UHGV virus genome: UHGV-0154878
Direction: 5' to 3' (one strand)
DNA from: a virus
Length of the DNA: 15,016 bases
This document shows positions 1,651 through 11,314 of the stretch, piece after piece (position 1 is the stretch's first letter; the number at the start of each line of letters is the position of its first letter). The position numbers and the translations under genes are program-made. The notes beneath the pieces were generated by a model, which saw nothing but the letters and a program-made list of their open reading frames with translations, was not told the origin of the DNA and searched no databases.

Positions 1651-1797
1651 ATGACAAAACAACTCAGTCCTTACCAGGACAAAATTCACAAACACATACT
1701 ACGTGATCGCTTCCTGTCCAGCTTCAAGCAGCCTGGTCGATTCCGGGCTGAGTTGGAAAAAGTGAAGCTGATGCAGAAGGAGAAAGGTCATGAGTAA
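1651..1797 (+). CDS. Hypothetical small protein (48 aa) between cII and the replication initiator
   Basis: AGGAGT Shine-Dalgarno 5 nt upstream of ATG 1651. Its stop overlaps the downstream start by 8 nt. No recognisable family. Confidence 0.4.
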
Positions 1798-2689
1798 CAT
1801 ATCTAATCTAGCCGAAGCCAGAGAGGCCAGAAGGCTACAACAACCGCATCAAAGCAGCGGTAAGGGGTATGCCTTGCTGCACCGTAAAATTATGGATGTG
1901 CCGTTTTACAAGGACGCAGAAGCTGCGCATCTGTGGGTTCACTTAATCCTCAAAGCAAAGCATACGCCTGAGTATGTAATGACTGACGCAGGAGAAATTC
2001 TGGTAGGCAGAGGGAAGCTACTTGGCGGTAGAAACTCTCTGGCGTTTGAAACAGGACTCAAACCAGATCGCGTTCAGTACCTGCTTAGAAAGTTCAAAAA
2101 ACTCGGCATGATTGACTGGGTTTCACACGGTAAATTCTCAGTTTTCTCGGTAGAGAAATATGACGATTATCAGTCAAATTTTGTACCAGCAGATTACCAG
2201 CAAATTACCACCTCAAAGCCAGCAATACCAATGCCTGCAAGCAATACTGTACCAGCAGATTACCAGCAAATTACCACAGATAAAGAATATAATAATATTA
2301 TCTCTAATACTGACGTATTAGAGAGTACCGTAGCAGACAAAAAGTCTGACAAGAAAAAACCTTCCGTCAGCTGTCAGGATGTTGTCGATGCTTACCACGA
2401 AATCCTTCCTGAAGCGCCAAGAATCCGCGCACTGAATGACAAGCGTAAAAACCAGATCCGAACGTTCTGGCGCAAAGCCGGAGTGATAACCCGCCAGCTT
2501 GACGGGCATGGGTTCACGATGCAGGACTGGAGAAATTATTTGAGCTACGTTGGCGAAAATTGCCGATGGATGTTCGAAGAGCGCCCAAACCATCAACGCG
2601 GAACCGTCTGGCACAAAAAGGGATTTGATTTCCTGCTTAACGATAATACCTACCTGAAAGTTCGTGAGGGTGAACACGATGACCGATAA
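1790..2689 (+). CDS. Replication initiation protein, lambda O / P22 gp18-like, with the origin embedded in the coding sequence
   Basis: Strong AAGGAGAAAGG Shine-Dalgarno. It sits immediately after cII and before a DnaB-family helicase. Direct DNA repeats (iterons) plus an AT-rich tract lie inside the gene and produce the duplicated peptide [10 protein letters not shown]. Confidence 0.75.
2182..2310 (+). repeat. Candidate origin of replication: iterons (two copies of a 30-bp unit, each containing ACCAGCARATT sub-repeats) followed by an AT-rich tract
   Basis: TGTACCAGCAGATTACCAGCAAATTACCAC occurs at 2182-2211 and again at 2248-2277, 66 bp apart. The AT-rich AGATAAAGAATATAATAATATTATCTCTAATACTG follows at 2278-2310. 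This is the same architecture as ori-lambda inside gene O. Confidence 0.65.
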
Positions 2690-5776: not shown

Positions 5777-5955
5777 GACGACAGCGACGAAGTATCACCG
5801 ACATCATCTGCGAAAACTGCAAATACCTTCCAACGAAACGCTCCAGAAATAAACGCAAGCCAATCCCAAAAGAATCTGACGTAAAAACCTTCAACTACAC
5901 GGCTCACCTGTGGGATATCCGGTGGCTTAGAGAACGTGCGAGGAAAACAAGGTGA
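5773..5955 (+). CDS. ninE: NinE-like small protein (60 aa)
   Basis: [60 protein letters not shown] matches my recollection of lambda NinE. ATGA overlap with the upstream stop. Confidence 0.6.
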
Positions 5956-6122
5956 TTGACCCAAATCGAAGTTACGAACAAGAAAGCGTCGAGCGGGCTT
6001 TAACGTGCGCTAACTGCGGTCAGAAGCTGCATGTGCTGGAAGTTCACGTGTGCTCCGATTGCTGCGCAGAACTGATGAGCGATCCGAATAGCTCAATGTA
6101 CGAGGAAGAAGACGATGAATGA
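5952..6122 (+). CDS. ninF: NinF-like small Cys-rich protein (56 aa; GTG start)
   Basis: Hand-translated [56 protein letters not shown] resembles lambda NinF. GTGA overlap with the ninE stop. Below the ORF-track size cut-off. Confidence 0.6.
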
Positions 6123-6837
6123 GTTAATAAATGGCAATGCCATCAAAATGACAAGCATTGAAATCGCTGAGTTGGTGGGTAAGCGTCATGACAATGTGAA
6201 ACGTACCATCGAAACGCTGGCTAAAAATGGTGTTATCCGGCTTCCTCAAATTGAGGTTTCCGAAAGAATCAATAACTTAGGGTTCAATGTTCAGTACGAG
6301 CATTACGTCTTCGAAGGCGAACAAGGTAAGCGAGATAGTATTGTTGTTGTTGCCCAGTTGTCGCCAGAGTTCACCGCTCGCCTTGTTGACCGCTGGCGAG
6401 AGCTTGAAGAAGCTGCGGTTAATATCCCCAAAACGCTACCGGAAGCGTTGCGCCTTGCTGCTGATCTTGCTGAGCAGAAAATGCAACTGGAAAACCAGCT
6501 CGCAATTGCCGCACCTAAAGTTGAGTTTGCCGATCGCGTTGGCGAGGCCAGCGGAATTTTGATTGGAAACTTTGCAAAGGTTGTTGGTATTGGTCCAAAC
6601 AAACTGTTTGCGTGGATGCGCGATCACAAAATCCTTATTGCTTCAGGTTCCCGGCGCAATGTGCCAATGCAGGAATATATGGATCGCGGCTATTTCACAG
6701 TGAAAGAAACAGCGGTCAACACAAATCACGGAATACAGATATCGTTCACCACAAAAATCACCGGGCGTGGTCAACAGTGGCTGACCAGAAAGCTGCTCGA
6801 TAACGGAATGCTGAAAGTAACAGGGGAGGCTGCTTAA
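6115..6837 (+). CDS. Phage antirepressor, Rha-family N-terminal domain with KilAC/ANT C-terminal domain
   Basis: N-terminus IEIAELVGKRHDNVKRTIETL is typical of the Rha family. The C-terminus (KLFAWMRDHKIL...EYMDRGYF) is typical of KilAC antirepressor domains. Confidence 0.75.
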   Translation: MNELINGNAIKMTSIEIAELVGKRHDNVKRTIETLAKNGVIRLPQIEVSERINNLGFNVQYEHYVFEGEQGKRDSIVVVAQLSPEFTARLVDRWRELEEAAVNIPKTLPEALRLAADLAEQKMQLENQLAIAAPKVEFADRVGEASGILIGNFAKVVGIGPNKLFAWMRDHKILIASGSRRNVPMQEYMDRGYFTVKETAVNTNHGIQISFTTKITGRGQQWLTRKLLDNGMLKVTGEAA

Positions 6838-7127
6838 TGGCTAACCTACGCAAAGAAGCGCGCGGCAGAGAATGCCAGGTACGTATTTACGGCGTATGCA
6901 ATGGCAATCCTGAAACTACAGTTCTGGCACATTACCGGATGGCTGGAATTTGCGGAACGGGAATGAAGCCTGACGACCTGATCGGCGCATGGGCTTGTAG
7001 CGCGTGTCACGATGAAATCGACCGACGCACCCATAATCTCGACAACAAAGACGCCAGACTTTACCACCTCGAAGGCGTGATCAGGACGCAGGCGATACTG
7101 CTGAAGGAGGGGAAGATTAAGCCATGA
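6837..7127 (+). CDS. DUF1364-family protein (YbcO-like putative nuclease, Cys/His-rich)
   Basis: RGRECQVRIxGVCNGNPETxVLAH...CSACHDEIDRRTH resembles E. coli DLP12 YbcO. TAATG overlap with the upstream stop and a GGGGAGG Shine-Dalgarno. Confidence 0.7.
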   Translation: MANLRKEARGRECQVRIYGVCNGNPETTVLAHYRMAGICGTGMKPDDLIGAWACSACHDEIDRRTHNLDNKDARLYHLEGVIRTQAILLKEGKIKP

Positions 7128-7486
7128 ACGAATATCAGTTTGTGCTTCCATACCCGCCGTCGGTGAACACCTACTGGCGAAGACGGGGAAGCCAATACTA
7201 CATCAGCGATAAAGGCCAGAAATACCGAAAAGACGTTCAGCAAATCATCCGCCAACTTAAGTTAGACATTTTCACCAAATCACGACTCCGCATCAAAGTC
7301 ATCGCAGACGTTCCAGACTCCCGCCGCCGCGACCTCGACAACATCCTGAAAGGTTTACTCGACTCCCTTATCCACGCCGGATTTGCGGAAGACGACGAGC
7401 AATTCGATGACATTCGCGTAATTCGTGGTGTGAAAGTACCAGGCGGACGGCTTGGAATAAAAATCACCGAACTGGAGAACGTATGA
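7124..7486 (+). CDS. rusA: RusA-family Holliday junction resolvase
   Basis: LPxPPSxNxYWR...RRRDLDNxxKxxxDxLxxAGF...GGRLxIxITE aligns with E. coli RusA. Confidence 0.9.
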   Translation: MNEYQFVLPYPPSVNTYWRRRGSQYYISDKGQKYRKDVQQIIRQLKLDIFTKSRLRIKVIADVPDSRRRDLDNILKGLLDSLIHAGFAEDDEQFDDIRVIRGVKVPGGRLGIKITELENV

Positions 7487-7671
7487 ACGCCACAATTCAA
7501 ACGATACCAGAGCTTCTTATCCAGACACGAGGCAATCAGACCGAAGTGGCGAGGATGCTTTCCTGCGCAAGAGGAACAGTGCTCAAGTACAACCGAGACA
7601 GCAAAGGCGAGCGTCACGTAATAGTTAACGGCGTCCTGATGGTCAAACAGGGCAAGAGGGGAAGACGATGA
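7483..7671 (+). CDS. ninH: NinH-like protein
   Basis: TIPExLxxxxGNQTEVARxLxCxRGTVxKYxxDxxGxxHxIVNxVLMV matches lambda NinH. Confidence 0.75.
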   Translation: MNATIQTIPELLIQTRGNQTEVARMLSCARGTVLKYNRDSKGERHVIVNGVLMVKQGKRGRR

Positions 7672-8156
7672 GCATAAGAGAACTAAACCTCACCAAAGAG
7701 CAGCACGAGTGGCTGAATGGCTGGCTTGAACTGTGGGGCGCATGGGTTTATTCAGGTCGTCTGGAAAAGCGCATGAGCAGCGTAATAGCGAAGTTCATGG
7801 AGAGCGTAGAGCCGGGAAGAGTTATGACAAGGCCAATGTGCAATGATGATGATGGAATGTTGATTTCTCAGGTCGTCGATTCCGTCATGTACATTGACAA
7901 GAAAGCCTTTGGCATCCTCCTCAGCTACTACGCTCATGGATCTTCCAAGCATGCCATTGCATCTTACTATCATCGCGTCGCAAGACCTCGCAAGATGTTA
8001 TGCCGGGGCGGCGGGCGTATTCAAAAACCATCGCTCGCAACCTGTCGCCGGGAAGTTGACGAAATCCTCAATGCTTCGTTGTTTATGATTTACCCGGTTC
8101 TGGATAGTGCGTTTAAAAACCGGAAACGTGTAGAGAAAATTAAACATGTAGCATAG
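7668..8156 (+). CDS. Q: Late-gene antitermination protein Q (QuuD/Q82-like family)
   Basis: Motifs LELWGAWV and RPMCNDDDGMLI resemble QuuD-type Q proteins. It is the last gene of the nin region and sits immediately upstream of a promoter-like element, tRNA genes and the lysis cassette. Confidence 0.8.
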   Translation: MSIRELNLTKEQHEWLNGWLELWGAWVYSGRLEKRMSSVIAKFMESVEPGRVMTRPMCNDDDGMLISQVVDSVMYIDKKAFGILLSYYAHGSSKHAIASYYHRVARPRKMLCRGGGRIQKPSLATCRREVDEILNASLFMIYPVLDSAFKNRKRVEKIKHVA

Positions 8157-8247: not shown

Positions 8248-8322
8248 GGGTCAGTCGTATAAAGGTCATTACGGAAGGCTGTTAACCTTCTTATCGTGGT
8301 TCGAGTCCACGCTGTCCCGCCA
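8248..8322 (+). tRNA. tRNA with anticodon GTT (Asn), non-canonical (one acceptor-stem mismatch, short D-stem)
   Basis: Hand-folded cloverleaf. Anticodon arm GAAGG-cTGTTaa-CCTTC. T-arm CGTGG-TTCGAGT-CCACG. Acceptor GGGTCAG/CTGTCCC has a T-T mismatch at position 4:69. Discriminator G, then encoded CCA. Confidence 0.6.
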
Positions 8323-8327
8323 AATAT

Positions 8328-8403
8328 GCTGGTTTAGCTCCAATGGTAGAGCGGTCGCCTTGTAAGCGAATGGGTAGCGGTTCAAGTCCGTTAACCAGCA
8401 CCA
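8328..8403 (+). tRNA. tRNA with anticodon TGT (Thr)
   Basis: Perfect 7-bp acceptor stem GCTGGTT/AACCAGC. D-arm GCTC-caatGGta-GAGC. Anticodon loop cTTGTaa. T-arm AGCGG-TTCAAGT-CCGTT. Discriminator A, then encoded CCA. Confidence 0.75.
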
Positions 8404-10134: not shown

Positions 10135-10188
10135 CATTACAGAAGCCCTTCACTGAGGGGCTTCGATAATGGAGCACTGGAATTATTC

Positions 10189-10809
10189 ATGAACAGACCA
10201 CACCCACCAGCGCATTTTACGATGCCACCTGACCCGAAGCCGTACATCAGCATTATGCCCGCTAATGACGTTGGCGAGTGGCTGAATCAGCACATCCTGA
10301 GCGATGAGGGTGACCTCTACAACCCTGACCACCAGCATTTGCTTGAAGCGGATCTGTGCTTTCTCTGGGCGTCGAACGCTTTCGAGAAGAAAGGGCGTTC
10401 CGTGCTGGGGCAGGCGGAAGAAGTGGCAATGCGTGCCGGAGGCTGGCAGAAAGCGCGGATGGAGCAGCAGATGTATGAATGGTTCGGCAGGGTGCCGCAG
10501 TTCATCATCACGCTGGCCGCTGATTACTGCTCGCAATGTTCCGATCTGGAATTCTGCGCGCTGATAGAGCACGAGCTTTATCACATTTGCCAGGCGACAG
10601 ATGAATTTGGCGCGCCGAAGTTCACGCAGGAAGGGCAGCCAAAGCTGAAGCTGCGCGGCCATGACGTGGAAGAGTTTGTGGGCGTGGTTCGCCGTTACGG
10701 TGCGAGCCGGGACGTGCAGGAAATGATTGATGCGGCGAATCAGCCAGCGGAGGTTGCTCATCTCGATATTGCCAGAGCGTGCGGGACGTGCATGCTGCGA
10801 CTGGCTTAA
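10189..10809 (+). CDS. Putative zinc metallopeptidase-like protein (HExxH motif), possibly of the phage 'putative peptidase' family
   Basis: EHELYH motif in a 206-aa ORF co-oriented with all flanking late genes. The overlapping - strand ORF (10183-10878) has antisense-type composition. Family assignment is from memory and unverified. Confidence 0.5.
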   Translation: MNRPHPPAHFTMPPDPKPYISIMPANDVGEWLNQHILSDEGDLYNPDHQHLLEADLCFLWASNAFEKKGRSVLGQAEEVAMRAGGWQKARMEQQMYEWFGRVPQFIITLAADYCSQCSDLEFCALIEHELYHICQATDEFGAPKFTQEGQPKLKLRGHDVEEFVGVVRRYGASRDVQEMIDAANQPAEVAHLDIARACGTCMLRLA

Positions 10810-10840
10810 ATACTGGACTGTATAAGACGAATGGTGATTT

Positions 10841-11314
10841 ATGGCTGCATTAAAACCTGATGTGAAAGCCTTCATCATTCAGTCGCTTGCGTGCTATGAC
10901 ACGCCATCGCAGGTGGTCGAGGCTGTCCAAAAAGAATTCGGGATCAAGATCACCCGCCAGCAGGCTGAATCTCACGACCCCACGAAGGCCAGCGGTAAGA
11001 CGCTCGCCAAAAAGTGGATCGAGATGTTCCACGCGACGCGCGAACGGTTCCTGACCGAAACCAGCGACATTCCGATCGCGAACAAATCCTATCGCCTCCG
11101 CGTGCTTGACCGCATGGCAACCAAAACCGAGGGGATGAAAAACTTCTCCCTGACGGCGCAGCTGATTGAACAGGCCGCGAAAGAGGTTGGCGACGCTTAC
11201 ACCAATAAGCTGAAGGTTGAGAGCACTGGCAAGGATGGCGGCCCGATCAAGACCGAGACGACCAACCTCACCGCAGATCAGGCCGCAGAGATTTACCGCA
11301 AGATGATGGGGTGA
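10841..11314 (+). CDS. Putative terminase small subunit (DUF2280-like)
   Basis: 157-aa ORF immediately upstream of the large terminase subunit, with an overlapping stop. The N-terminal region looks like a DNA-binding domain. Assignment is by position and weak recollection. Confidence 0.5.

Follow-up and report, generated by a model that had tools for sequence, protein, structure and literature searches.

A common lambdoid phage gene, roi, that appears to hold a candidate binding site for its own product beside an IHF site

The stretch of DNA considered here (hereafter the window) comprises 15,016 nucleotides of the virus genome UHGV-0154878, and the gene in question is roi, which lies between ninF and a YbcO-family gene. 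The gene is an already known and very common regulator of the lambda-like phages, represented in the window by an intact copy. The unexpected part is that its coding sequence seems, on the pattern of variation among its homologues, to carry a binding site for its own product beside a site for the host protein IHF (integration host factor). The features of the gene that bear on this reading are as follows.

6115..6837, plus strand: roi coding sequence, 240 amino acids and a stop, with an ATG start and a TAA stop (list of open reading frames and translation).
6148..6411, plus strand: N-terminal Rha-type winged helix-turn-helix domain, amino acids 12-99 (Pfam PF09669 and AlphaFold2 model).
6178..6303, plus strand: mosaic allele patch, amino acids 22-63, which holds the recognition helix, the dyad, and the IHF core (protein and DNA alignments).
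6187..6225, plus strand: predicted recognition helix, amino acids 25-37, with N27, R30, and T34 exposed (AlphaFold2 model).
6238..6262, no strand: dyad-symmetric element CGGCTTCCTCAAATTGAGGTTTCCG, the proposed Roi operator, which spans at least 25 bp.
6244-6256, no strand: dyad core CCTCAAATTGAGG, a perfect 6+1+6 palindrome of 13 bp at codons 44-48.
6267..6279, plus strand: IHF core consensus AATCAATAACTTA (WATCAANNNNTTR), 5 bp downstream of the dyad.
6436..6549, plus strand: long linker helix, amino acids 108-145 (AlphaFold2 secondary structure, with a block pLDDT of 52-69).
6490..6798, plus strand: C-terminal ANT/KilAC domain, amino acids 126-228 (Pfam PF03374).

Over its 240 amino acids, the product is 88% identical to the Roi protein of phage HK97 (gp65) and 89% identical to that of HK022. 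A megablast search recovered 431 phage records, with DNA identities of 98.4% for HK140, 98.0% for HK620, and 95.7% for HK97; the HK620 match is annotated as "roi: DNA-binding protein Roi", and the HK140 gene likewise bears the name roi. In passages that cite Clerget & Boccard 1996 (PMID 8763934), the one experimental study of a close homologue, HK022 Roi is described as binding DNA and having a part in lytic growth in IHF mutants, and not as a protein that binds repressors. A 100% identical Roi protein occurs on dozens of viral contigs and 2,355 database members are clustered under this same sequence, while roi is present in 1,110 of 5,426 complete genomes of Escherichia coli, with RefSeq naming the product either "phage antirepressor KilAC domain-containing protein" or "DNA-binding protein".

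The initial annotation had described the open reading frame of 240 codons at 6115-6837 as an antirepressor gene inserted in the nin region, in a slot that is empty in lambda. The reading frame is real, given the list of open reading frames and the translation, and the observation as a whole goes well beyond chance. The slot is also empty in lambda, where ninG comes immediately after ninF. The novelty implied by the word "inserted" does not hold, however, as this is the standard roi gene, found in the same slot in HK97, HK022, and HK140. The order ninF-roi-gp66/ybcO-rusA-ninH-Q is the same in all three phages, the HK620 record annotates these genes in the matching region as well, and roi-ybcO-rusA occupies the place of lambda ninG.

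The differences between this protein and the Roi of HK022 and HK97 lie nearly all within amino acids 22-63, the remainder being almost identical. The E. coli prophages have six or more allele classes of this patch, and the window carries the HK620/HK140-type allele. The neighbors of roi also vary across prophages, with ninF, an ORF6N/P22_AR_C gene, or a P63C gene on the 5' side, and either ybcO-rusA or ninG on the 3' side. A scan of one genome per species returned 12 loci only, and the diversity analyzed below was drawn from viral contigs instead.

Some variants of the locus may be recorded here in their own right. In several E. coli prophages, ninF is replaced by a gene for a protein with ORF6N and P22_AR_C domains (approximately 226-234 amino acids), located approximately 75 bp upstream of roi, which is not present in the window. 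In the viral contig IMGVR_UViG_2778261535_000012, an in-frame deletion fuses roi at about codon 22 to a ybcO-like start (...ELVGNLRKEARGRECQ...), which represents a natural deletion of roi. Longer database entries for Roi, with N-terminal extensions, are also found (304 amino acids, n = 2; 294 amino acids, n = 2), two of them with a NinB match in Pfam, and the probable causes are frameshifting, fusion to nin genes located upstream, or errors of gene calling.

The combination of an N-terminal Rha domain with a C-terminal KilAC domain, which had been proposed from the sequence, was borne out by the domain search, in which both families exceeded their Pfam cutoffs. The ANT/KilAC domain (PF03374) matches amino acids 126-228 with E = 7.7e-33 and a score of 113.5 bits (cutoff 25.3), and the Phage_pRha domain (PF09669) matches amino acids 12-99 with E = 6.3e-9 and 36.7 bits, against a cutoff of 29.9. 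The narrower Rha subfamily model of NCBIfam falls below its threshold (17.9 bits, with a cutoff of 45.95), and the whole protein matches PHROG_63, "anti-repressor Ant", with E = 1e-99. No match to Bro-N or AntA was found for the N-terminus in Pfam at E ≤ 1, and the PADLOC defense-system models gave no match.

The AlphaFold2 model has an overall pLDDT of 77, with block values of 78-94 over amino acids 11-100. In this portion, the winged helix is formed by a strand (11-13), two helices (14-21 and 25-37), a beta-hairpin (45-52/58-67), and the helices of residues 68-102. The HK022 protein is likewise said to contain a helix-turn-helix motif. The linker helix of amino acids 108-145 may possibly act as a dimerization element, and the modeled KilAC domain is weakly similar to winged-helix DNA-binding domains.

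The evidence for a site within the gene begins with the dyad core, which ends ten bases upstream of the IHF core. In other alleles, the corresponding codons also form a palindrome, but not of this sequence (CCTGCATTGCAGG, CCCCCAATGGGGG, and CCGCCAGTGGCG instead), and when synonymous codons are randomized, given each peptide, the observed symmetry has P = 0.004-0.03 for most of the palindromic alleles. The pattern is also found well beyond E. coli, in a set of 52 distinct homologues from viral contigs of many hosts, which are 33-55% identical to a distant Zavarzinia query. At least five of the six core pairs are formed at the same codons in 39 of these 52 homologues (26 perfect, and 13 with five of six), a level reached by approximately 0.5% of the other positions in the same genes.

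In an alignment of 49 sequences, to which all the following values refer, the core is paired in 87.5% of cases, in comparison with 70.9 ± 1.7% in shuffles and 33-47% when the partners are slid, and its covariation score is 0.423, against 0.158 in shuffles, with one of the core pairs showing all four Watson-Crick types. The outer arms, that is, the six pairs that flank the core, are 67.3% paired, in comparison with 41.9 ± 2.5% in shuffles. The symmetry therefore extends outside the core, and the element spans at least 25 bp, at 6238-6262.

The sequence of the core also varies together with the protein. Within each half of the dyad core, base pairs 3, 4, and 5 change in step with the exposed residues N27, R30, and T34 of the recognition helix, and when residues 22-43 were scanned without bias for mutual information with bases 3, 4, and 5 of the core, amino acids 27, 30, and 34 ranked at the top. 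At position 27, asparagine is found with T:A, lysine with C:G, serine with A:T, and aspartate with G:C; at position 30, arginine or glutamine accompanies C:G, and isoleucine or valine accompanies G:C; at position 34, threonine goes with A:T and arginine with C:G. The classes defined by residues 27, 30, and 34, in this order, and their half-sites are as follows.

N, R, T: half-site CCTCA.
N, R, R: half-site CCTCC.
N, I or V, R: half-site CCTGC.
K, Q, R: half-site CCCCC.
S, R, R: half-site CCACC.
D, R, R: half-site CCGCC.

The three residues thus combine independently, and the same residue pattern is found at the protein level in 66 distinct database segments. The opposite face of the helix is buried and conserved, with V28 nearly invariant, and I32 and L35 invariant. 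The pairings of residue and base are chemically ordinary, with lysine and arginine associated with G, asparagine with A, and aspartate with C. The third base of the Pro44 codon covaries with its partner, and, given that this base is synonymous, coevolution within the protein cannot explain the pattern. Taken as evidence from sequence variation, this is good support for the view that the Rha domain has, as its cognate site, the dyad core within its own coding sequence. Such a reading fits the work on HK022, in which Roi reportedly binds a site inside its own gene, near an IHF site, with IHF stabilizing the binding.

The second element is the IHF core, for which the strict consensus WATCAANNNNTTR has a single match in the window, with both strands counted, and this match is inside roi. 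Four diverged alleles have the core at the same codons, as do relatives from Yersinia, Pantoea, and Serratia. Over 25 distinct sequence contexts, the isoleucine of these codons is encoded by ATC in 24 of 24 cases, and the leucine by the rare TTA in 25 of 25, while the codon under the unspecified IHF bases and the glycine codon just past the core vary freely. This codon pattern is the signature, in sequence terms, of a constraint at the DNA level that matches the IHF consensus.

The dyad appears to be unique in its surroundings. A single perfect copy is found in the window, within roi, with no second copy at up to two mismatches. The diverse homologues have no second copy within 1.5 kb, and the 76 loci that share the allele show no consistent one within a distance of 10 kb. 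In the early region of HK022, the sole perfect copy is, again, that in roi. In HK140, the ori iterons of the O gene (CCTCAAATTGGGG and CCTCAAAACGAGG, at 32554-32610) closely resemble the allele-A Roi core CCTCAAATTGAGG, and a one-mismatch copy of the core (CCTCGAATTGAGG) is located upstream of N, at 29866-29878. These near-matches, which are lambda-type iterons and one site upstream of N, were not treated as targets of Roi. The window has a different replication module from that of HK140, and contains no iteron-like copies of the core. An origin-like role of the dyad, as suggested by the resemblance to iterons, was also set aside, given that there is one dyad only and the window has a replication module of its own.

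The position of roi in its operon bears on what such a site might do. The features that surround the gene are as follows, all on the plus strand.

5952..6122, plus strand: ninF, the upstream gene, 56 codons (Pfam NinF, PF05810), with an 8-nt overlap with roi.
6102-6106, plus strand: Shine-Dalgarno-like GAGGA, read from the sequence, within the end of ninF and 8 nt 5' of the roi ATG.
6837-7127, plus strand: YbcO-family gene, the next gene 3' of roi (Pfam YbcO, PF07102).
7124-7486, plus strand: rusA (Pfam RusA).
7483-7671, plus strand: ninH (Pfam Phage_NinH).
7668-8156, plus strand: Q antiterminator gene (Pfam Phage_antitermQ).

The overlaps at both ends of roi had been described correctly from the sequence. 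The ATG of roi (6115-6117) overlaps the end of ninF, with its TGA stop at 6120-6122, by 8 nt, and the last base of the roi TAA (6835-6837) is also the first of the ATG of the following gene (6837), in the form TAATG. Together with the Shine-Dalgarno-like sequence, these overlaps would fit translational coupling of roi within the operon. No credible promoter or terminator was found for roi, with no sigma-70-like site nearby and counts below the shuffle expectation, and neither LexA-type control nor an immI-like control region was found at the gene. An Rfam scan of the window returned two tRNAs only, away from roi, and no RNA in the roi region. Given the lack of a promoter of its own and the overlap with ninF, roi is part of the CI-repressed rightward operon, as a delayed-early gene between the replication genes and Q.

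The reading that is favored here, with reasonable confidence, is that Roi is an autoregulated regulator of the delayed-early operon, which carries its own operator. The N-terminal winged-helix domain would bind, probably as a dimer, the dyad at 6238-6262 (core CCTCAAATTGAGG), which may be the very site reported for HK022, and this proposed site falls in the codons for the start of the wing of the same domain. Host IHF would bind the adjacent core at 6267-6279 and stabilize the Roi complex. The resulting complex would most likely limit the production or activity of Roi by feedback, for example as a roadblock to elongation, so that, with the loss of IHF, Roi might rise to levels harmful to lytic growth. 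The C-terminal KilAC domain would act as a separate effector, or as a second DNA-binding module. With a single site, and no promoter near roi, the simplest reading is a local feedback on the operon. In HK022, single amino-acid changes that alter the binding of Roi are said to permit growth on IHF-deficient hosts.

A number of points weigh against this reading. The feedback logic, as conjectured, does not follow simply from the phenotype that has been reported. Some intact E. coli alleles of roi ("QLPSMQKVENKQTISPNKF" and "FPPMGEKPTAGRP") have no IHF core, and one class has no palindrome either, and control by IHF, and perhaps self-binding, are therefore not universal in the family. The associations between residues and bases were scored without regard to phylogeny, and some of the classes have few members. 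The half-sites of the core are approximately 6-7 bp apart, center to center, an unusually short distance for a dimer of the helix-turn-helix type. Among alleles with one class of recognition helix, the sequence of the outer arms changes freely, and yet the arms stay complementary, a pattern more typical of selection for base pairing (a hairpin or a cruciform), or of mutation by template switching, than of the read-out of a sequence.

This last point leads to an alternative, in which the dyad is not the operator of Roi, but a nucleic-acid structure (an RNA hairpin, possibly in an antisense transcript, a single-stranded DNA hairpin, or a cruciform) or a template-switch quasi-palindrome, with the match to the helix classes reflecting shared ancestry. 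The RNA of the window allele does fold, with a 5-bp stem and extra outer pairs, at -9.8 kcal/mol (z = -2.4), whereas the fold of the HK022 RNA is poor (-2.9 kcal/mol, z about 0). On the sense strand, G:U pairs are not enriched (8%, with 11% expected), and 32 of the 49 aligned sequences keep complementarity at the innermost pair, although no hairpin could form this pair around a "loop" of one base; a sense-strand RNA hairpin was down-weighted on these two grounds. A:C mismatches are mildly over-represented, accounting for 30% of the non-Watson-Crick cells, with 20% expected, and would read as G:U on an antisense strand, and antisense transcripts that run from Q up to roi have been reported in the literature for phage Gally. 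A structure would not, however, lead one to expect a correspondence between bases and residues that is combinatorial, chemically sensible, and confined to one face of a helix, nor the binding of HK022 Roi to DNA within its own gene, as it has been reported. On balance, the dyad is probably the operator of Roi, and it is unlikely that it represents a structure only.

The role of the C-terminal half may be considered separately. For the Listeria protein AriS, the ANT/KilAC domain is sufficient to inhibit the SOS response, and proteins of the AriS type have AntA/B, Bro-N, or pRha N-termini, of which the last, combined with KilAC, is exactly the architecture of Roi. Roi might then have a dual function, with its N-terminal domain acting on phage genes and its KilAC domain on the host, for example by damping RecA or the SOS response. 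This would be compatible with the favored account of an autoregulated gene, as it concerns the effector half only. AriS is distant, however, and belongs to a phage of a Gram-positive host, and the weak winged-helix resemblance of the KilAC model would fit a second DNA-binding role instead. A function of the AriS type is, accordingly, considered doubtful.

The initial annotation had suggested an antirepressor or a modulator of the lytic switch. Its view of the architecture and position stands, while the novelty is lost to the known roi gene and the antirepressor role amounts to a domain name. As a true antirepressor, Roi would bind and inactivate CI-type repressors of its own or co-resident prophages, and promote their induction. 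The ANT/KilAC domain is indeed found in the classical antirepressors of P22 and P1, both PHROG and RefSeq apply such a label to the protein, and an action in trans on other prophages is conceivable once the phage that carries roi is active. Set against this, the N-terminal domain is of the Rha type, unlike the Bro-N or AntA of the P22 and P1 proteins, and roi, with no promoter, LexA-type control, or immI-like region, sits inside a repressed operon, and is therefore unable to trigger the induction of its own prophage.

The CI protein of the window, furthermore, carries a Peptidase_S24 self-cleavage domain, and thus has no need of an antirepressor. Other candidates exist for this role, including the ORF6N/P22_AR_C gene beside roi in other prophages and, according to the literature, the lytic-induction enhancer Ant that the Stx phages carry just upstream of Roi, and Roi is therefore not the sole candidate. 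No experiment showing antirepressor activity or repressor binding by Roi, or by any protein that combines Rha and KilAC, was found in the searchable literature. The term "antirepressor", as applied to Roi, is a name inherited from the KilAC domain alone, and a true antirepressor function is considered very unlikely. For a named and widespread phage gene such as roi, the label would spread a name without experimental support.

The arrangement proposed here for Roi may be more general. The Rha-type winged-helix modules, across the family, might carry their own operator in the codons of the wing, approximately 20 codons past the recognition helix, with target and specificity forming a mosaic cassette of about 130 bp, and residues 27, 30, and 34 reading pairs 3-5 by a swappable code, to which the enterobacterial alleles would add an IHF site. 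The chances of this being correct are judged to be about even, and no description of a family-wide, self-encoded operator was found in the searchable literature, beyond the single result on binding in HK022.

If the dyad is the operator of Roi, this would explain why the helix, the site, and the IHF core of the variable patch travel as one unit. It would also provide a small and testable code of protein-DNA recognition for a family of phage regulators that is very large and little understood, and a handle on the reasons why phages of the HK022 and phi80 types need IHF for lytic growth.

The rest of the window contains the early and late regions of a lambdoid phage, beginning with cI (on the minus strand), cro, cII, an O-like gene, a gene for a DnaB-type helicase, ninB, dam, ninE, and ninF, followed by roi. 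After this come the YbcO-family gene, rusA, ninH, Q, two tRNAs, and the genes for holin, lysozyme, Rz, a metallopeptidase, terminase, and portal. The gene in the position of the replication initiator (1790-2689, plus strand) has no confident Pfam family, with a weak match to DUF7376 only, and is followed by the DnaB-type helicase, rather than a protein of the lambda P type. The two tRNAs, tRNA-Asn (GTT; 8248-8322, plus strand) and tRNA-Thr (TGT; 8328-8403, plus strand), are located between Q and the holin gene, in the leader of the late operon. An open reading frame of 231 codons (10183-10878, minus strand) lies antisense to the phage metallopeptidase gene (10189-10809, plus strand; PF18894), and is probably a shadow reading frame.

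Among known systems, the closest are the Roi proteins of HK022, HK97, HK620, and HK140, which are full-length homologues with the same Rha and KilAC architecture, the same slot, and the IHF core at the same codons. The alleles of HK022 and HK97 differ from that of the window in the face of the recognition helix (N-V-R, against N-R-T in the window) and in the dyad core (CCTGCA, against CCTCAA). The Rha proteins of phi80 and P22 belong to the Phage_pRha family, as does the N-terminal domain of the Roi of the window by the Pfam threshold. The classical Rha proteins have no KilAC domain and are encoded in the late region, whereas this Roi has a KilAC domain and is encoded in the nin region. The gene rha reportedly blocks phage growth on IHF-deficient hosts, which is the same phenotype as that of roi.

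The C-terminal half of HK022 Roi is said to resemble Ant1 and KilA of P1, and the ANT/KilAC domain is common to Roi, P22 Ant, P1 Ant1/2, and P1 KilA. The antirepressors of P22 and P1 combine this domain with a Bro-N or AntA N-terminus and have dedicated control regions, in contrast with Roi, which has a Rha N-terminus and is an internal gene of an operon. AriS, of the Listeria phage phi10403S, shares the KilAC domain with Roi, but has an AntA/B N-terminus, where Roi has pRha, and acts in a Gram-positive host; the damping of the SOS response by its KilAC domain is the opposite of the effect of an antirepressor.

In its layout, finally, Roi resembles two systems with which it shares no homology. 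Lambda O, with the ori iterons, has its binding site within its own coding sequence, as does Roi on the present reading, although Roi has one dyad rather than an array of iterons. The C protein of Kpn2I, which is described as regulating its own gene by acting as a roadblock to elongation, has its target within its own gene, as is proposed here for Roi.

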